DNA of 64,000 nucleotides from Candidatus Limnocylindria bacterium (GTDB taxonomy: Bacteria > Chloroflexota > Limnocylindria > P2-11E), in contig DATDEH010000083.1 in assembly GCA_036523395.1 (NCBI GenBank), forward strand, positions 53,686 through 117,685, given 5' to 3'. Positions 2,383 through 26,875 of the stretch are shown one piece after another. A program made the position numbers and the translations under genes. Each line of letters opens with the position of its first letter. Position 1 is the first letter of the stretch. Under the pieces are notes generated by a model. That model was given only the letters and a program-made list of their open reading frames with translations. It had not been told where the DNA came from and did not search any database.

Positions 2383-2866
2383 ATGTCGCGCATTTGTCGC
2401 TCAAGCTCGCGAGAACATTCGGAAATCGAGAAAGTCGCGCTCCCGGCTGACCAATTCGGGTGCGCAGACCTCTGCGGGTAACTGCACGCGACAACGTCGA
2501 TGAACGCGTTGTTGTCGCCTCGGCGGCGATGCACCAACTCGTCGCGCAGCCAGCGATTTCACGTTGCTGTGATGAGCGCCAGGTGATCCACCGTGCTGCT
2601 GATGCTCCGCCCTCGCTTGCCATGCGAAACGGCCGACGACGAATACCAGGATGACTGCCGTCCTTGCGTAGAAATTCGGCCCACGCCGAGTGCCCGTGAC
2701 TGTCGCGGGAAGTCCATCCGTCATCACTTCTCTGCACACGAGTACCGCAGGTTCAAGCACGCGGGAAATGCCTTTCCGCTGTGGTTCCCGGGGTATTCGT
2801 GCTCTAGGTCCCGGCTGCCTGAAGACGACGTCAGGTGGCTGACGTCGATGTTTGGCGCCTCAGTCC

Positions 2867-3460
2867 TCACCGATGCCGAGCCATGTTCCACACAGCAATC
2901 CGCTGGTCAGAGCAGTTGGCGGGGTCGTTTGTGGCGCCCTTGCCGACGGCGAAATGGGTCCCGACTTGTGCCACGCTAACCCTCAGGTCGTACTCAAAGT
3001 CACGGCTCGAGTTGGCCTGTCCCCGCGCGAGATCGAAGCGCTCGCCCGCAGCGCGGCGGTCGAGGAAGTACCGCACTATCGCATCGCGATCTCGCGGTGC
3101 CGCAAAGTCTCCGCCGACCTGACGCCGATCGTCACTAAAGATCACGGCCGTCGCAAGAGCTGCCGTAATCGCTTGCCCGTCACCGGCGTCAATGGCGCGA
3201 ACGAAAGAGCCTAATAGTTCAGACACGTCTGCCTTCGTGCAGGGAAGGTTGCTCGCGGGTCGGGAACCGCTATCTGGGATCGAACAAGATAACGTGAGCA
3301 CGCACGCAAGCAAAAGACCAAAGACGAAGCGCGCCGCAGGCGTGCGACCGGGGCTCTGCAGACGAGCTACAGGCCCACGGCGAGGAGCGCAGCGGACCCC
3401 AGAAGGACAAGATGGCCTGCGCCGATGATCCGCGCCATCGGCTGCCGATGGATCAGCCAT
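2867..3460 (-). CDS. putative secreted lipoprotein (last gene of the island operon)
   Basis: Hydrophobic segment ARFVFGLLLACVLTLSCS with a Cys-containing lipobox-like end; no ATG/GTG immediately upstream of the signal peptide, so the start codon is uncertain and overlap with the upstream gene may be shorter. Confidence 0.4.
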   Translation of the reverse strand: MADPSAADGADHRRRPSCPSGVRCAPRRGPVARLQSPGRTPAARFVFGLLLACVLTLSCSIPDSGSRPASNLPCTKADVSELLGSFVRAIDAGDGQAITAALATAVIFSDDRRQVGGDFAAPRDRDAIVRYFLDRRAAGERFDLARGQANSSRDFEYDLRVSVAQVGTHFAVGKGATNDPANCSDQRIAVWNMARHR

Positions 3461-3951
3461 AGCGCCTCCTCGTTAAAGTCGCGTCCTCGTCGGTATTCGA
3501 TAAGGCTTGCCAGAAAGAGCGCCGCGCCGCCAACGGCACGCGTACCGCCGTACGCGCCAAATACCATTGCACCGACAGCCGGGTTCCCGAGTAGGAACGC
3601 GGCGGCTGGCACCAGATACCAGGACCAGAATCCAATCCGGGTCGTCGCTCCGATGCCAAGTACTGCTCCCGTGGGCAGTCCCCATCGAATGGGGCTGGTG
3701 TTCACCCACCGCAGTGGTGTCTCCCTATCACACTGCATCAACTGCGGACCCCGGCCAAACCACGCGGCGCCCCCGAGAGCAACGGCCAGCATGGCACCGA
3801 GGCTCGCAAGGATCGTCCTCCCGCTGGCATCAACGTAACTACCAAGCAGACCCAGTAGAGCGCCAGCGGCAGCCGCGGCGGCTGCGGCACTGAGCGTGAA
3901 GCTCAGGACCGCAAGGCCACGCCTCGCATGACTCCTTCTGTTCCGAAGCAC
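3367..3951 (-). CDS. polytopic integral membrane protein, unknown family
   Basis: 194 aa with 5-6 hydrophobic helices (LAVLSFTLSAAAAAAAAGALLGLL, AVLGIGATT, VPAAAFLLGNPAVGAMVFGAYGG, LLGSAALLAVGL); lies directly downstream of the Cys-rich peptide gene. Confidence 0.45.
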   Translation of the reverse strand: MLRNRRSHARRGLAVLSFTLSAAAAAAAAGALLGLLGSYVDASGRTILASLGAMLAVALGGAAWFGRGPQLMQCDRETPLRWVNTSPIRWGLPTGAVLGIGATTRIGFWSWYLVPAAAFLLGNPAVGAMVFGAYGGTRAVGGAALFLASLIEYRRGRDFNEEALWLIHRQPMARIIGAGHLVLLGSAALLAVGL

Positions 3952-4130
3952 GTCGGAACACGCGATCCCGAAGACCGCGTTGACACCTCAGGGCAGGGTC
4001 TGTTGCAGGACCGCGACGAGGGATGCGGAGCCGACCCAGAGCCAGACTACGTCGGCGTCACCGGAACGAAGTGCGAGTCCTATTGCGAGGCCCACGGCAG
4101 TGAGCGCAACTAGGAGAAGCACTCTCAGAG

Positions 4131-4520
4131 TCAGCATGAACCGCCGCACGGTCCGATGTAGGCCCGGCAGATGCAGGTGTATCCAGCGCAGTTGTCGACC
4201 CAGTCACAGCACAGGTACTCCGCGCGGCAGTAGCACGTGTACCAGCACTGTGTACCGTTCGGACAACCGAGATAGCCATCGGTACACGGCGTTCCACAGG
4301 TGTCAATGCACTGCGTGCCGCTACAGTTGTGACACAGTTTGTAGCCGAAGCACGGGTACGAACTCACGTGATTCGCGCTGGCAAGGTCTGGCGCAGTCAC
4401 CCTAAGCGCGGCGCTGAACAGCAGTCCGCCCAGCAGAGCGAGGGCCCGACTGCGGCCGAACCGCACCCTCTCAAGAGCTGGGTCTGTGGGATCGCCGATA
4501 TCAACGAGTTGCATGGACAT
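4131..4520 (-). CDS. secreted cysteine-rich small protein (17 Cys in about 78-aa mature region)
   Basis: N-region with Arg cluster, hydrophobic core ALALLGGLLFSAAL, then VTA/ASA cleavage-like sites. Mature part is VSSYPCFGYKLCHNCSGTQCIDTCGTPCTDGYLGCPNGTQCWYTCYCRAEYLCCDWVDNCAGYTCICRAYIGPCGGSC. Start overlaps the upstream thioredoxin gene by 20 nt. Confidence 0.55.
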   Translation of the reverse strand: MSMQLVDIGDPTDPALERVRFGRSRALALLGGLLFSAALRVTAPDLASANHVSSYPCFGYKLCHNCSGTQCIDTCGTPCTDGYLGCPNGTQCWYTCYCRAEYLCCDWVDNCAGYTCICRAYIGPCGGSC

Positions 4521-5097
4521 CTTCCAATGCCTCCCTTAGTGGACTCGGTAGGCGACGTCTTCCGTCGCTCCGCGCTCGCACGATCACCTCGAAATCTCGG
4601 ACCGTGTGCATGTACGACTTCGCGGTTACATGGCCGCTTTCAATCTCAAGTAGGAAGGGTGTCCGCTGGAGTTCCAGCGCCTTGGCGAGCGACGAGGCTA
4701 CGGGGTCGACCACGGTCTGGATCCAGGCCGGAAACTGCTCGACGAGCGTGGCTGCCAGCTCCGATCTTCCCGGAACTAAGGCCACCGTGCGTGGAACTTC
4801 GCGCGCCTTGGCCAGTTGCGGCACCAGTTCGCGACATGGACTGCAGGTCGCCGATGTCAGCAGCAAGTAAACAGGACCCTTGGCGGCCTCGGGGATTGTT
4901 GCGATGACTTCCGGTGACACTGCCCGTCCGATCTCCAGCCCATCTATGTTCCCCGCTGGCCGGCCCGCCCCAGACGCCTCCAAGCGCACCGCGAACACCG
5001 CCATCTGGCGGACCAGCGTCAGCGTCGTGATCGTCAGGACTCCTGTCCAAATCGCGAGCCCAATTGACACAAGTTCAGACACGTGACGGCCCTCCAT
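4501..5097 (-). CDS. membrane-anchored thioredoxin-fold thiol-disulfide oxidoreductase (TlpA/MauD-like)
   Basis: N-terminal TM helix LVSIGLAIWTGVLTITTLTLV, then a thioredoxin-like region with a CSPC (CxxC) active site in YLLLTSATCSPCRELVPQL. Confidence 0.6.
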   Translation of the reverse strand: MEGRHVSELVSIGLAIWTGVLTITTLTLVRQMAVFAVRLEASGAGRPAGNIDGLEIGRAVSPEVIATIPEAAKGPVYLLLTSATCSPCRELVPQLAKAREVPRTVALVPGRSELAATLVEQFPAWIQTVVDPVASSLAKALELQRTPFLLEIESGHVTAKSYMHTVRDFEVIVRARSDGRRRLPSPLREALEDVHATR

Positions 5098-5653
5098 GTT
5101 CGTGCCGACTGAGTCGCAGAAGCCCGGGCATCGATGAACCTAACCACGCTGACGCCGTCAATGCGAGTGCGATCAGTAGCTGCTCAACGATGTGCAATGT
5201 CGTCGGAGGGCCCAGCGCAAGCGCGAGAGTCGCAAGCAAGGCCAGTCCACCCGTGCGCGCGAGAGTCCGTCGCGAGACGCCCTCATCAGCTTCTCCAAAG
5301 CAGAAGCAGGGCTCATGGTTGCCGCGCGCGAGTTGTCGACCGATCAGACCCGTGTACAGCCAGAGCAGCAAGGCGGCAACCGCGATTGCAAAGGCACGGC
5401 TGCTTTCGACAATCAAGCCCAAGGCTAGGCTCGCCTCGAAGATTCCTACCGCCAAGGCCATCCGCGGATGAACACCGGAGATGATGCCGAACGAACTGAT
5501 TCCCCGAGCCGCCAGACTGGGCTCGCGGATCTTCGCTACTGCTGCGACTCCCAATACAACGGCGATGACGCACGCGGCGACGCCTCCGGTCTCACTGCCC
5601 CACTCACTACCGAGTGCGGACAGAGCGGAGCCGATCAGGGCGAATCCGCTCAC
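5075..5653 (-). CDS. MauE/DoxX-like redox-associated membrane protein
   Basis: Four hydrophobic helices and a paired-Cys motif EPCFCFGE near the third helix; the organisation next to a membrane thioredoxin mirrors the mauE-mauD pairing of methylamine dehydrogenase clusters (family call from memory of sequence features). Confidence 0.55.
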   Translation of the reverse strand: MSGFALIGSALSALGSEWGSETGGVAACVIAVVLGVAAVAKIREPSLAARGISSFGIISGVHPRMALAVGIFEASLALGLIVESSRAFAIAVAALLLWLYTGLIGRQLARGNHEPCFCFGEADEGVSRRTLARTGGLALLATLALALGPPTTLHIVEQLLIALALTASAWLGSSMPGLLRLSRHEHGGPSRV

Positions 5654-5655
5654 GG

Positions 5656-6192
5656 CTAGGCGGTCCGAAATATCTCGCGAGCCACGGGCCCGTCCCGTGG
5701 GTCAACGCGTACGACCATCGTCACGGTGTCACCAGGCGAGATCGCCTGAACTGATATTGGATCGGTGCGTGTGCCGTTGTAGAAGCGACAGTCAGCAGGG
5801 ACTCTCGCCGAGCCAGCGCTCGTCGCGATGATGTCGGCAGTGGCAGACACAACCGGACCTGACACCAGGCGATAGAGCGCCTCCACTCGCGACGCACGCA
5901 ACGGCGGCCTGTCTCCTTCAAGTTCGGCGACCACCTCATCGCCTCGCATGAATGCTTTGTAGGACGCCGCGCCGTCACGGTTGAACGCTGCGTCGTGTAT
6001 TTGCACGAGCTGTCTACCTTGGGTTGTCTGCAGAAGCATGACGCTTTGATTGAGCTGCTCGATTACGCCGTTTACGCTTGGTTTCACAGGTCCTGCTTCA
6101 CCGGCAACACTTAGGGTGCCGAGACTTGTCATGCCTACGACGACACCGGCGGCAGTCAGAAGACGGCGGCGGGTAAGCGGAACGTCATTCAT
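5656..6192 (-). CDS. Tat-signal secreted protein, unknown function (first gene of the operon)
   Basis: Twin-arginine motif TRRRLLTAAGVVVG followed by an AxA-like site; a 3-nt gap separates it from the MauE-like gene. Confidence 0.5.
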   Translation of the reverse strand: MNDVPLTRRRLLTAAGVVVGMTSLGTLSVAGEAGPVKPSVNGVIEQLNQSVMLLQTTQGRQLVQIHDAAFNRDGAASYKAFMRGDEVVAELEGDRPPLRASRVEALYRLVSGPVVSATADIIATSAGSARVPADCRFYNGTRTDPISVQAISPGDTVTMVVRVDPRDGPVAREIFRTA

Positions 6193-6404
6193 AGGGCATC
6201 CCTCGCTTTCGACTATTCCCCGACGAGAGGGGCATCCGATCGTGGCCGCTGCGCCGAAGAAGTCGCTACCAAACGTAGTGACGCGGGGGGCCTCGTCAAA
6301 GTCGGCAGTTCTACCGACGCCATGCGAATGGATCCGAGCCCCCGCAGGACTGACCGCCGAGACAGTTGGAGGTCGGCTTGCCGATCCGCGAGCCCGGAAG
6401 AGTG

Positions 6405-6746
6405 TTAGTCCCGGCCAGGCCGATGTCCTTTGGACGGTGGGCGGTCGCCGCCGTCGGACTTCTCAAGACGATCCAGCCATTCAGGGTCCTGAAGAACCTG
6501 CGCGACGAGCGCAGCGCGACAGTGCACGTGATAGCGGTCATAAAGGCGCTCAAGGTGAGTGCGCACGGTGCGATACGAGGTGCCGACCCGATACGCAATC
6601 TCCTTGTCGGTCGAACCGTCGGCGAGGAGTTGGACGATTGCGGTCTGCGCGTTCGTCATTTGCCGGATGCGGCGTTTTGGGCGGTCGTCTCGATCGTCCT
6701 CAGCTCTCGCCGCCGCGACGGAGGTCGAAGGCTTCGGTTTGACCAC
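6405..6746 (-). CDS. LuxR/GerE-family HTH transcriptional regulator (small)
   Basis: C-terminal TNAQTAIVQLLADGSTDKEIAYRVGTSYRTVRTHLERLY matches the LuxR-type HTH signature. Confidence 0.6.
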   Translation of the reverse strand: MVKPKPSTSVAAARAEDDRDDRPKRRIRQMTNAQTAIVQLLADGSTDKEIAYRVGTSYRTVRTHLERLYDRYHVHCRAALVAQVLQDPEWLDRLEKSDGGDRPPSKGHRPGRD

Positions 6747-6884
6747 GAAATGTGACTTCCTCCGAGTCTCGTATGACGCTCGGGCAACTCAGCGACGGGT
6801 GGCGCCGGGCTCACCCTTTCGTCCGCGCTCAGGTAGCGGATAGTCCTACTGACTGGCAGGTCAGGCAACTGTACCTTTGGTCAA

Positions 6885-7094
6885 ATGCCTGGGCAGTCGT
6901 CGCGCAGACAGCCGACGCCTCAGCAGCAGGAAGTGCTCGATCTGCTGTTGCGGGGCGCGACCAACAAGCAAATCGCAGTCCGACTTGGGATCACCGAACG
7001 TGGCGTCAAGTACCACGTGTCACGGCTACTCGCGCGCTACTCCGTGGACAGTCGCGCGGAACTCATCTCGTTGATCCTTCGCAGGCGGCGCTGA
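6885..7094 (+). CDS. stand-alone LuxR/GerE-family HTH protein (69 aa)
   Basis: TPQQQEVLDLLLRGATNKQIAVRLGITERGVKYHVSRLLARY is the LuxR-type HTH signature; divergent to 6405..6746. Confidence 0.6.
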   Translation: MPGQSSRRQPTPQQQEVLDLLLRGATNKQIAVRLGITERGVKYHVSRLLARYSVDSRAELISLILRRRR

Positions 7095-7328
7095 TCGGCA
7101 TAGCGAGTCGACCAATGAGGCACTCCGCCAAAGAGCCCAGGCACGTAAATGCGACCCGGGACAGATTCCAGTGGCTTGCCGCCAGCCCGCGAGTCCTGGT
7201 CACATTTTCGATGTGAAGTGCGCCACGGTGACCCATGGACTACTCCGGTACAACGCGGGGGTGCCTCGGACATTTCTCGTTAGTCGCTTTGGCGTTCTGG
7301 CCCTGTTGGTGACGCTGTTGGGCAGGCC

Positions 7329-8300
7329 TTGGTCTCGGCCAACAATCCGACCGGCGCTTTCGTCCGATTCGTCCGAGACCGGACGCAAACCGTATGGCCT
7401 GAGTTTCTTCTCATCCGAAAGTTCCTTCCTCGCGTTCGAGAAGAATCCATAATCACCGCGAGCCGCCGCGAGACCGATGTCGTCCGCCTCGTTGCGCTCC
7501 ACCGCTTCCTCACCCGCCCTCAGCTCGAGGATTTCCTGTTCGCGGAATCGACGCTGACGCCACGCTCGCGGCAGGTCGTGACCTGGCGGATCCTCGGACG
7601 CCTCCAGCGCCACGGCCTCGTTGCTGCTACGCCGCGCCAGAGCGGCGGCGCGGTTGCCGGCTCCACGTTGCCTGGATATTTCCTGACCACGACCGGGCTG
7701 CGCGTCGCCGCCACCTTCTACCCCGATCTCCCGGCACGTCGGCCGGCGCGACGCGCGCCGTTCCTCCTCGCGCATAGCGTCATGGCCGCCGACGTCGAGC
7801 TCGCCTTCCGCCGCGCGGCGCGCGGGAATTCCGGACACGAGCTGGAGCTCTGGGAGTGCGACTGGCAGACCCGGCTGAAGCTCGGGAGCAAGAAGCTTCT
7901 GCCAGACGCGCGACTCGTGTATCGCTTGGGCCGGGTGCTGCTCGATGCCTTCGTCGAGGTGGATCTCGGGACCGAGGGGACGCGCTTCTTCGCCGGCAAG
8001 ATCGACCGGTACATCTCGGCCCGCTACGACGGCGGCTGGCGCACGCATCTGTCGCGCTGGCCGATGACGCTCACGATCACACCGACTGCGGCGCGGGCGG
8101 CGTCGCTCTGGGAGGCGACCACCGCGAGGCTGAACGCGCACCCCTGGTCTTCGGGCGGGATGGCCTTCAAGTTCTGCTCGATCGATGCGCTTCTGGGCGA
8201 ACCCGGAGTGCTCGGCGCGCGCTGGCGCGTCGCCGGCACAAAGGAGTCGACTCTGTTCGCGACTCCAGAGCAACTTGCCGCGGCAAGCGGTGCTGAGTGA
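7329..8300 (+). CDS. replication-relaxation family protein (plasmid/ICE-type)
   Basis: N-terminal winged-helix signature ETDVVRLVALHRFLTRPQLEDFLF...SRQVVTWRILGRLQRHGLV is typical of the replication-relaxation family; the antisense 404-aa ORF 7200..8414 is rejected as an R/A-rich artefact. Confidence 0.5.
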   Translation: MVSANNPTGAFVRFVRDRTQTVWPEFLLIRKFLPRVREESIITASRRETDVVRLVALHRFLTRPQLEDFLFAESTLTPRSRQVVTWRILGRLQRHGLVAATPRQSGGAVAGSTLPGYFLTTTGLRVAATFYPDLPARRPARRAPFLLAHSVMAADVELAFRRAARGNSGHELELWECDWQTRLKLGSKKLLPDARLVYRLGRVLLDAFVEVDLGTEGTRFFAGKIDRYISARYDGGWRTHLSRWPMTLTITPTAARAASLWEATTARLNAHPWSSGGMAFKFCSIDALLGEPGVLGARWRVAGTKESTLFATPEQLAAASGAE

Positions 8301-8389
8301 AACGTGGGTCAATCCGCCATCAGTCATCGGTGGGCGGTCGCCGGTGATACGCTCGGCCGCGGTCAGCCGGGAGCGCGTGAAGGTGGCAC

Positions 8390-9420
8390 ATGGCCGCACA
8401 ACGCGCGTGGACATTCACAACTGAAGACGAGTCCCAGACGCTGAAGCCCTCGTACCCGCTCACGGAAGCGATCGCGGACTTCCGGCGCGATGCGCCGATC
8501 CGCGAGACCACCCTCCGCGGGTACACCGTCTCGCTCCGCCTATTCACCGAGTGGCTTCAAGCGAAGGCCGACGCACGACCTGCACTCGCCGACCTCACGT
8601 ACGAAAACGCGTCGGCGTTCGGGGCGAACTTCCGTCCCACGGACAAGCACGCACCGCGCTACACCGAGCGCAACAAGCTAGTCGCGCTCAAAGCGCTCGC
8701 GAAGTGGCTCGCCGAGCGGCACCTGTACTTCGAGGCACGCGGTGACCAGCGCCTCTCGATCCTCCGCGACCTGAGGCTCCCACCGGTCCGCAGCTCGGAC
8801 GCAAACCCTTCAGCGACCGTGAGGTGAAGGCGATCCTCGGCGCGGTTTCCAAGATCGCCACCTACCCGATGCGCGAGCGCGCGATCCTCACCCTCCAGAT
8901 GTCGGCGCCGATGCGGCCCGACGAGGTGCGGCGCATCGCTCTCCGCGACTTCGAGCCGCGCGAGCGCGAAAGACGCGGACACATCCGGATCCGCGGCGCG
9001 AAGACCGAAGCCGGGTCCGACCGAGTCATCCCGCTGGACGACGAGGCCGAGTCGGCGCTCCACAGCTACCTCCGGTTCGAGCGGCCGGCGTGGGCCGGCG
9101 ACGGACCGAGAGATCACGCCGGCGAAGAGCCGCTCTTCCTGAACCGCGACGGCAGAGGCTTCACCGAGTTCTCCTGGAACAGCCGAAATCAGATCCTGCG
9201 ACGCCGGCTCCAGCAGTCCGGCGTTCGCGACTTCGTCCAGTACCGCTCCCGCGGATACGCCGCGAAGCGCCTGCAGAAGCGACGCGTGCCGCTGCAGGTG
9301 ATCATGCAGATCGGCGGCTGGAAGCGGGAAGCGATGCCGACGCGGTACATCGGCAAGTACGACGAGGACGAGCTCAAGGACTTCCCCACCGCGAACCTGC
9401 GCGACGTCCTCGCGAGGTAA
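8390..9420 (+). pseudogene. tyrosine-type site-specific integrase, apparently split by a frameshift (N-terminal ORF 8390..8827, catalytic ORF 8824..9420)
   Basis: N-terminal ORF has the SAM-like core-binding features (YTVSLRLFTEWL). The second frame reads GRKPFSDREVKAILGAV (classic integrase linker) followed by a catalytic domain with Arg (MRPDEV), Lys (GAKTEAG), GGWK (Trp at the His-II position, as in Cre) and the TRYIGKY nucleophile Tyr. The two frames overlap around 8746..8827. Confidence 0.7.
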
Positions 9421-9516
9421 CAAGAGACCACTGCGGGTCAGACCTCTGCGGGAAAACGGAAGACCTCTGCGGGGGCAAGAACGCGATCAGCACGATCGGC
9501 CCGGTTCTATTGACTC

Positions 9517-9589
<73 letters not shown>

Positions 9590-26617: not shown

Positions 26618-26875
26618 CTAAACGTCTCTCGCCGCGGCGCGGACAGCGTCGCCTATCAGGCCTCGTTCAGGAAATCCACCGTCGCGCCCCATCGAGTGGA
26701 CGAGTTGGCCGTCGACTGAAACGTCGAACGTGCCCGACTCCCACGGGATGAGCTCGATCGCCGAGAGCTGCGCGCCGAATTCGTACATGAGCGCCTTCGT
26801 GAGCTCGAGAGCCTGTGGCTCGTACCCGCATTCGGCGCAGTAGGTGATCTTGACCCTGACCGGTCGCCCGGTCAC
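26618..26875 (-). CDS. SelW/Rdx-family redox protein (Cys form)
   Basis: VKITYCAECGY CxxC motif at the N-terminus of an about 85-aa protein, typical of the Rdx/SelW fold. Confidence 0.7.
   Translation of the reverse strand: MTGRPVRVKITYCAECGYEPQALELTKALMYEFGAQLSAIELIPWESGTFDVSVDGQLVHSMGRDGGFPERGLIGDAVRAAARDV

Follow-up and report, generated by a model that had tools for sequence, protein, structure and literature searches.

MauE and MauD have been described as accessory proteins (van der Palen 1997, as cited in PMC7794033). MauE can stand in for DsbB in Escherichia coli, where its CXC motif is essential, and a survey of MauE proteins found that a highly conserved Phe-Gly comes after this motif (bioRxiv 10.64898/2026.03.05.709764). 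The decRiPPter study flagged three Streptomyces candidate families of RiPPs (peptides made by the ribosome and then modified post-translationally) that contain mauE, one of them also mauD, with precursors of at least eight cysteines; these mauE families remain uncharacterised (PMC7794033). Here we describe a locus within a 64,000-nucleotide stretch of a Candidatus Limnocylindria bacterium assembly (contig DATDEH010000083.1, positions 53,686 to 117,685; hereafter the window), in which a small cysteine-rich protein of a large family is encoded together with a MauE-family membrane oxidase, a thioredoxin-fold protein and a probable membrane selenoprotein.

The cysteine-rich protein and its family

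The gene at the centre of the locus encodes a precursor of 129 residues (Table 1). Its residues 52-129, the stretch that an earlier note on this DNA had taken as the mature sequence, hold 17 cysteines in 78 residues (22%), a single CC doublet (C104-C105) and a C-terminal GGSC, just as that note had counted. With a cysteine fraction of 0.127 against a median of 0.018, the product ranks top among the 337 stop-to-stop open reading frames (ORFs) of at least 100 residues in the window, and the richest 78-residue stretch in its frame contains 18 cysteines, as compared with 10-14 in the other five frames. Long overlapping ORFs do occur in this DNA of 67% GC, at 3980-4405 and 4329-4907 on the plus strand, and would be compatible with the cysteine-rich frame being a chance ORF or the shadow of an opposite-strand gene. 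We give this reading virtually no chance. It is contradicted by the ribosome-binding site, by third-position GC content (0.72, the best of the overlapping frames, versus 0.45-0.63 in three overlapping shadow ORFs) and by divergence at synonymous sites, 36 of the 71 codons for identical residues differing synonymously between the gene and its homologue on L001; it is refuted by homologues, at least 199 homologous clusters showing conserved cysteine positions and synteny. Because of its ribosome-binding site, third-position GC content and synonymous divergence, the cysteine-rich ORF is a real gene, and the overlapping frames, which the note had named as possible holders of the true gene, are shadow ORFs.

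The first 49 residues look like a signal peptide. They carry the motif (V/I)(P/R)FGR(S/N)R(F/L/A)L, in which R23 is kept in 130 and R25 in 121 of 139 aligned members, the set on which all family conservation counts given here rest; a hydrophobic stretch follows and then A47-x-A49, with A47 kept in 116 and A49 in 124 members. The signal-peptide-like N-terminus that had been noticed in the single sequence is thus borne out as a conserved leader with an AxA cleavage site, and disulfide-forming genes adjoin the gene.

The family is seen only by exhaustive profile search. A word-indexed protein search gave three relatives only, all from Logan assemblies, and a search of genomes with the three-sequence family alignment found no genome relative; a profile of those three, run against 1.84 billion cluster representatives, recovered 199 proteins at E <= 1e-3, 107 of them at or below 1e-10, so that the family comprises at least 199 clusters. 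Its members are almost all 110-150 residues long. None of the 139 aligned members matches a Pfam or NCBIfam model, and the family is undescribed in these databases and in the searchable literature; the earlier inability to place the protein in any family was well founded. Two members from the profile search have unusual ends: in P0147 (287 residues) the thioredoxin-fold protein is joined to the cysteine-rich protein, by fusion or by a frameshift that went unrecognised, and P0152 (154 residues) has a cysteine-rich start and ends in the ...AIAQQTLP tail of the selenoprotein N-terminus. Together they indicate that frameshifted gene calls happen in this cassette.

The mature domain spans about 80 residues and has 11-13 conserved cysteines. 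Within it C57, C63, W93 and C116 are invariant (W93 in 139 of 139 members), and C66, C79, C86, C92, C104, C105, D106, C118 and C125 are found in at least 90% of members, with D106 kept in 136. Cysteine positions are accordingly conserved among homologues, the check that the note had proposed, and the recurring G-T-x-C and Y-T-C units that it had picked out are not features of the family.

Counted from the cleavage site onward, the cysteine total is odd in 134 of the 139 members (96%), at 9, 11, 13, 15, 17, 19, 21 or 23. C92 and C105 are lost together, both being present in 131 members, neither in six and one only in two; other cysteines are likewise lost pairwise (65/72, 96/125, 71/79 and 86/118), whereby parity is kept. 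Paired loss and kept parity therefore point to disulfides plus one extra cysteine, and the proposal that an odd count implies a cysteine outside disulfides holds family-wide. Once the co-lost pairs are removed, five near-invariant cysteines are left (57, 63, 66, 104 and 116), so that the 17 cysteines of the protein in the window resolve into a 13-cysteine core and two extra pairs. Judged from the alignment, the five would account for two more disulfides and one cysteine that is never partnered.

The cassette, its probable selenoprotein and the integrated element

The cysteine-rich gene is the fourth in a tight minus-strand operon (Table 1). The first gene, in the position of mauB, encodes a 178-residue protein with a twin-arginine translocation (Tat) signal, no Pfam match and no known domain. 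A clear homologue with the same TRRRLL signal lies 5' of MauE in locus L144, as read from the sequences (blastp gave no match), and the counterpart in L120 shows a weak blastp match and an SRRVF signal; L145 in the equivalent position and L146 after F encode proteins that are similar in architecture and have no clear twin-arginine motif, and one of these gives a faint DUF5666 hint. The lone cysteine of the 178-residue protein was considered as a partner for the odd cysteine and rejected, the L120 homologue having no cysteine.

By its profile score and its CXC-F-G loop, the second gene belongs to the MauE family (PF07291). The active-site loop of the window protein is C-F-C-F-G; in L120, L127 and L130 it is CAC-FG or CLC-FG. 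The third gene, whose 3' end overlaps the start of the cysteine-rich gene by 20 nt, encodes a membrane-anchored thioredoxin-fold protein in which C85xxC88 and P147 are invariant across nine orthologues. In the PDB its profile matched thioredoxins and tryparedoxins only weakly, and two orthologues matched the TIGR02661 model of MauD below its cut-off (E = 0.0012 and 0.092). Genes of mauE and mauD type therefore lie immediately upstream of the cysteine-rich gene in mau order, with the MauD assignment weak.

The same cassette recurs on Logan contigs L001-L003, in a Solirubrobacterales metagenome-assembled genome (L120, JBJMKO010000044.1) and in metagenome loci L127, L130/137/138/142, L131, L132, L135, L136, L144, L145 and L146/147, with the gene order shuffled in one subgroup. 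A degenerate DNA pattern run on GTDB genomes yielded at least one true locus (L120) among the matches listed, the rest being chance, and a tighter pattern run on metagenomes yielded 12 true loci out of 20. In the loci examined the cysteine-rich gene always lies within the cassette, with MauE, a CxxC thioredoxin-fold protein and a UGA-containing membrane protein.

This last protein is divided by gene callers into ORFs of 49-53 and 194 residues that lie in one frame, joined by a UGA. The shorter ORF ends in ...LQQTLP-TGA, conserved residues follow at once (GVNAVFGIA in the window, GPNAVYGIASS elsewhere), and neither a start codon nor a ribosome-binding site occurs directly after the TGA of this frame. 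Each of 11 distinct loci has TGA as this codon, with QQ(T/S/G/A)L(P/A) ahead of it and G(P/V)N (or AYN) behind; the 11 homologues in databases are without exception fragments of 174-198 residues cut at the UGA, and no full-length cysteine-containing form is present among them. Just beyond the UGA stand two conserved hairpins that resemble a selenocysteine insertion sequence (SECIS), in which 90.9% of cells are paired and compensatory changes affect nine of 14 pairs; the observed value was reached in none of 500 shuffles, and slid controls stay at or below 46%. An Rfam scan of the window returned tRNA only, and we know of no Rfam model with which the SECIS-like element could be compared. In L120 a SelB gene (TIGR00475, E = 5.8e-95) occupies 520-2115 on the plus strand, immediately upstream of the cassette, and in the 64-kb window no tRNA-Sec was found.

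Because the codon is TGA in all 11 loci, the hairpins covary, SelB is present in L120 and no cysteine form is seen, we read the UGA as selenocysteine (Sec), and the two ORFs together probably represent one new family of polytopic membrane selenoproteins. The read-through protein would have roughly seven hydrophobic segments; it shows the invariants D-x-E-T-P-x-x-W and RIGFW and no Pfam or NCBIfam match. A cysteine in a QC(D/N)RETP loop was considered as a conserved redox partner and rejected, being absent in L130, L132 and L135. Since this nearby cysteine is not conserved, the single Sec would be the only conserved redox residue of the protein. Elsewhere in the window, an 85-residue ORF at 26618-26875 on the minus strand contains a CAEC motif (VKITYCAECGYEPQ) and bears a by-eye resemblance to the cysteine form of the SelW/SelT/Rdx redox family.

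The cassette is the cargo of a small integrative element, since it lies between tRNA-Cys repeats, in a region of lowered GC (63.6% inside the repeats versus 67.5% in the flanks), with an integrase and a Replic_Relax gene. A Replic_Relax gene also flanks the cassette in L132. The integrase consists of a first part of 145 residues with no Pfam match and a second of 198 residues with the PF00589 catalytic domain, and may be frameshifted and decaying. The 44-nt repeat of the tRNA-Cys 3' half occurs three times, which indicates tandem integration at tRNA-Cys of the 7.1-kb element and of a 1.6-kb segment at 712-2338. This segment holds a DUF2652 gene; the 538-residue mechanical ORF at 921-2537 on the minus strand runs across the middle att repeat and matches DUF2652 over residues 189-302 (E = 1.5e-27), and the true gene probably begins much later, near MTVDHGLIVLGDVSGYTEF.

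Table 1. Features of the locus and their positions in the window.
Feature	Position	Strand	Details and basis
Cysteine-rich protein precursor gene, 129 aa	4131-4520	minus	ATG 4518-4520, TGA 4131-4133; ORF and translation
Leader, residues 1-49	4374-4520	minus
Mature domain, residues 50-129	4134-4373	minus
Shine-Dalgarno sequence AAGGGAGG	4530-4537	minus	9 nt 5' of ATG; read in the sequence
178-aa protein, first operon gene, mauB position	5656-6192	minus	canonical twin-arginine signal TRRRLL
MauE-family membrane thiol oxidase, 192 aa	5075-5653	minus	PF07291, E = 1.6e-19, 70.9 bits vs 27-bit cut-off
Membrane-anchored thioredoxin-fold protein, 198 aa, mauD position	4501-5097	minus	CSPC motif, cis-Pro 'TP' loop
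Probable membrane selenoprotein, ~260 aa	3367-4149	minus	UGA at 3988-3990, context ...LQQTLP-U-G(P/V)NAV...
Two conserved hairpins, SECIS-like element	3961-3979 and 3940-3959	minus	start 9 nt after UGA; RNAalifold consensus
Putative secreted protein or lipoprotein gene, 197 aa, 3' of cassette	2867-3460	minus	translation; possibly NTF2-like
LuxR/GerE-type helix-turn-helix regulator	6405-6746	minus
LuxR/GerE-type helix-turn-helix regulator	6885-7094	plus
Replic_Relax gene	7329-8300		Pfam annotation on identical Logan contig
Tyrosine integrase, split	8390-8827 and 8824-9420	plus	two overlapping ORFs beside tRNA-Cys
tRNA-Cys	9517-9589	minus
Integrated element, 7.1 kb, carrying the cassette	2383-9517		bounded by copies of the tRNA-Cys 3' half
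44-nt repeats of the tRNA-Cys 3' half	668-711, 2339-2382, 9518-9561

Regulators of LuxR type also occur near the cassette in L144 (5894-6121, 7852-8043 and 8258-8539), L130 (11522-12151) and L138, and their recurrence suggests dedicated transcriptional control. The 197-residue protein 3' of the cassette gave one weak match, to the SigJ C-terminal region; similar-looking proteins of about 180-290 residues by mechanical ORF call trail the cassette in L124 (about 470-967), L129 (293-934), L131 (1647-2381) and L136 (1035-1574), with an N-terminal helix motif that recalls NTF2/SnoaL, for example VRAFVRAFDAGNAVAV, and BLAST found no link among these proteins of the different loci. The shuffled-order cassette is accompanied by a conserved secreted protein of about 180 residues (L124 1085-1633, L129 1051-1596, L130 5230-5769 on the minus strand) with no Pfam match and motifs that include GGVWTCDYIAAHP and ...YYCWHTP. 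Directly downstream of the cassette in L120, at 5232-6242, lies a gene for a SurA-like peptidyl-prolyl isomerase (Rotamase_2, E = 4.6e-8), in line with a folding theme.

Fold, proposed reactive site and competing readings

Two AlphaFold models (pLDDT 87.4 and 85.7) both contain strands at residues 92-97, 100-109 and 114-124, with pLDDT of about 90. Foldseek against the PDB gave no match below E = 2, the best being the defensin-like bacteriocin laterosporulin at a non-significant E = 2.1. The closest solved folds are the light chains of methylamine and aromatic amine dehydrogenases that bear tryptophan tryptophylquinone (TTQ), a signal that is consistent but weak: two chains, the only TTQ light-chain representatives seen in the fold library, were repeatedly top-ranked. 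Because of this repeated ranking and the independent mauE/mauD-type context, we put the chance that the cysteine-rich protein has a genuine MauA-like fold at somewhat better than even.

Sequence comparison with Paracoccus denitrificans MauA, verified against PDB 1MG2_B, gave no significant match. PF02975 had no match at E <= 1 in any of the 139 members, phmmer and hmmsearch against PDB sequences did not retrieve MauA, and MauA scored -3.4 bits against the family HMM; hhalign was likewise non-significant, with a probability of 9% for the single MauA and P = 0.099 for an alignment of 117 MauA sequences, which was compared locally, globally and in relaxed mode. The relaxed register nevertheless agrees with that of the motifs common to both proteins: it pairs C57 with C23, a C-x-C-(S/G)-G box, W93 with W57, C96 with C61 and C116-x-C118 with C86-x-C88.

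The order of the genes for the Tat protein, MauE, the MauD-like protein and the small cysteine-rich protein copies mauB-E-D-A, and the product is therefore read as a miniature MauA-like small subunit. In the reading toward which we lean, at odds only slightly in its favour, export and cleavage after A49 would be followed by oxidative folding through the protein's own MauE and thioredoxin-fold pair, to give a MauA-like domain that has a reactive cysteine near W93 and D106 and serves as a redox-active small subunit alongside other extracytoplasmic products of the operon. Five to eight disulfides would be installed and shuffled after export by the thioredoxin-fold protein and by MauE, itself re-oxidised by quinone, the selenoprotein perhaps serving as a further redox relay, and the product would be a compact three-stranded beta domain whose nearest solved relatives are the TTQ-bearing light chains. 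One conserved cysteine would stand outside the network of disulfides. The first hairpin has its register fixed by the co-varying disulfide C92-C105, which would set W93 opposite C104, with D106 on the same face; in this arrangement C104, W93 and D106 would form a likely reactive site, C104 being one of five candidates for the unpaired cysteine. Candidate states of the site are a free thiol, a Cys-Trp quinone-type cross-link and a Se-S link, and the same three residues would, hypothetically, also fit a structural tryptophan packed on a disulfide. The most likely role would be at the cell surface, as a catalytic or redox-active module that works with the Tat-exported protein, the selenoprotein or both; a free toxin is less likely.

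Several observations weigh against this reading of the protein as a MauA-like redox subunit. The leader motif is not a canonical twin-arginine signal. TTQ is formed by W57 and W108 in P. denitrificans MauA, and the second of these tryptophans has no conserved counterpart in the family, position 107 being W in 87 of 139 members and otherwise Y, F or C. Simply transferring the disulfides of MauA would not give the co-loss pairs 86-118 and 96-125, and both the map of disulfides and the choice of odd cysteine are inferred, not seen in the model coordinates. None of the loci has a mauB, mauG or amicyanin gene in its cassette, which counts against membership among the TTQ light chains; the 64-kb window contains no ORF of at least 150 residues with a CxxCH motif, hence no protein of MauG type, and the cassette has no radical-SAM or flavoprotein gene for cofactor maturation. 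Because the C-terminal half with the second tryptophan is missing, W107 is variable, MauB and MauG are absent and the co-loss pairs differ, the sequences do not place the family in PF02975.

Alternatively, the product might be an antimicrobial or signalling peptide, secreted, rich in disulfides and resembling a bacteriocin or RiPP, that MauE and the thioredoxin-fold protein only fold and for which the membrane protein provides immunity or export. A small, leader-bearing, cysteine-rich product would suit such a peptide, as would a cassette on a small mobile element with LuxR-type regulators and, in L132, a Replic_Relax gene beside it; the decRiPPter study supplies a precedent in its three Streptomyces candidate families with mauE (PMC7794033), and laterosporulin is the best, if non-significant, structural match. 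We nevertheless consider this explanation unlikely. The cassette holds no transporter, leader peptidase or other modifying enzyme, and the leader looks like an ordinary signal peptide with AxA; nor does the cassette hold a protease or RiPP recognition element gene. The redox foldases are the only candidate tailoring genes, and the features expected of a RiPP precursor are lacking. A conserved odd cysteine, an invariant tryptophan and a near-invariant aspartate are unusual for defensin-like peptides, and a selenoprotein would be an odd immunity factor. The Streptomyces precursors themselves were rejected as relatives for want of detectable similarity: they are not demonstrably homologous, scoring 6-14 bits, all from composition bias.

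A true quinoprotein small subunit, in which W93 is a quinone cross-linked to the odd cysteine as in cysteine tryptophylquinone (CTQ), D106 is the base and the whole is a minimal amine or alcohol dehydrogenase or oxidase module, seems to us marginally less probable than the peptide. The invariant tryptophan, conserved odd cysteine and near-invariant aspartate are the residue set of CTQ sites, as in the gamma subunit of quinohemoprotein amine dehydrogenase (QHNDH) and in LodA/GoxA; the C92-C105 register would bring the three together as described above, the closest solved folds are TTQ light chains and the operon is mau-like. This is countered by the lack of any MauG, QhpD, QhpG or LodB-type maturation gene in the cassette or window and of an electron acceptor gene (amicyanin, azurin or cytochrome) nearby; a buried tryptophan on a disulfide is, moreover, a common structural feature, and the geometry derives from secondary structure, not coordinates. 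A broader proposal, which we also regard as doubtful and on a par with the peptide, is that the family forms a new and minimal kind of redox cofactor protein outside the cytoplasm, about 80 residues long and a reduced relative of the TTQ light chains, whose odd cysteine (probably C104) would be bonded to W93 in CTQ-like fashion or joined in a selenylsulfide to the Sec of the membrane protein, encoded by a MauG-free, self-contained and horizontally mobile six-gene operon. Far less probable than any of these is an extracytoplasmic metal binder with reduced thiols, such as a metallothionein-like protein or a copper or mercury chaperone. Very high cysteine content and CxC, CC and CxxC spacings would fit one, and an odd count is no obstacle for metal clusters, but the gain and loss of cysteines in pairs with parity kept is the mark of disulfides plus one extra cysteine, a disulfide-forming oxidase always adjoins the gene, AlphaFold predicts a confident beta fold without metal, and the cassette has no metal-transport genes.

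Comparison with known systems

Among described proteins, MauA and AauA (PF02975) invite the closest comparison. Like the cysteine-rich protein they are small and exported, have a long leader and contain many disulfides (six in MauA, from its 12 cysteines). The two share a CC doublet and the motifs C-x5-C, CxC(S/G)G, CP.G, W..C, CC and CxC in the same order, and both genes lie directly 3' of mauE and a thioredoxin-fold gene in the mauD position. The family differs in that its mature domain has about 80 residues versus about 130 in MauA, as the earlier remark that it is far shorter had anticipated, in lacking the C-terminal half that bears the second TTQ tryptophan (W108), and in having an odd rather than an even number of cysteines. 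A second, putative likeness is to QhpC, the gamma subunit of the CTQ-containing quinohemoprotein amine dehydrogenase, a small subunit of about 80 residues with cysteines in non-disulfide roles beside the cofactor tryptophan and a catalytic aspartate, a Cys/Trp/Asp set that the present family would resemble.

As in known MauE/MauD pairs, the operon has a MauE with CXC-F-G and then a membrane-anchored CxxC thioredoxin-fold protein, here scoring below the MauD cut-off; the substrate family, however, is a different and undescribed one, and the membrane selenoprotein has no counterpart in mau clusters. The decRiPPter families likewise set MauE, alone or together with MauD, beside a small cysteine-rich peptide that bears a leader, in the absence of the rest of the mau cluster, whereas their precursors, at about 57-66 residues, show no significant similarity to the cysteine-rich family, and no selenoprotein or Tat partner was reported for them (PMC7794033). 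In the literature we found no link between MauE and a selenoprotein, nor of MauE with cysteine-rich clusters beyond PMC7794033 and bioRxiv 10.64898/2026.03.05.709764.

The cassette supplies a defined, abundant and unannotated family of MauE substrates, with at least 199 clusters. We know of no dedicated natural substrate of MauE outside methylamine dehydrogenase. MauE has only recently been shown to be a widespread DsbB-like oxidase (bioRxiv 10.64898/2026.03.05.709764). A conserved odd cysteine among five to eight disulfides points to a reactive centre or cross-link that is built into the protein, a trait that to our knowledge few secreted bacterial proteins have. If the relationship to MauA is true, the protein would be the first relative of the tryptophylquinone light chains to be truncated and independent of MauG, and would bear on the evolution of those cofactor proteins. 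The selenoprotein family, systematically split at its UGA by gene callers, would extend the short list of bacterial membrane selenoproteins and, in Actinomycetota-like bacteria of soil, connect selenium with thiol chemistry outside the cytoplasm; with the whole system carried on a 7-kb integrative element, heterologous reconstitution is practical.

Set against what is already established, the maturation of a small disulfide-rich protein by MauE and MauD is known from mau clusters and has been flagged bioinformatically in Streptomyces. Undescribed in Pfam, NCBIfam and the searchable literature are the substrate family with its conserved odd cysteine and putative truncated MauA-like fold, the probable selenoprotein that accompanies it, and the packaging of both on a mobile element.

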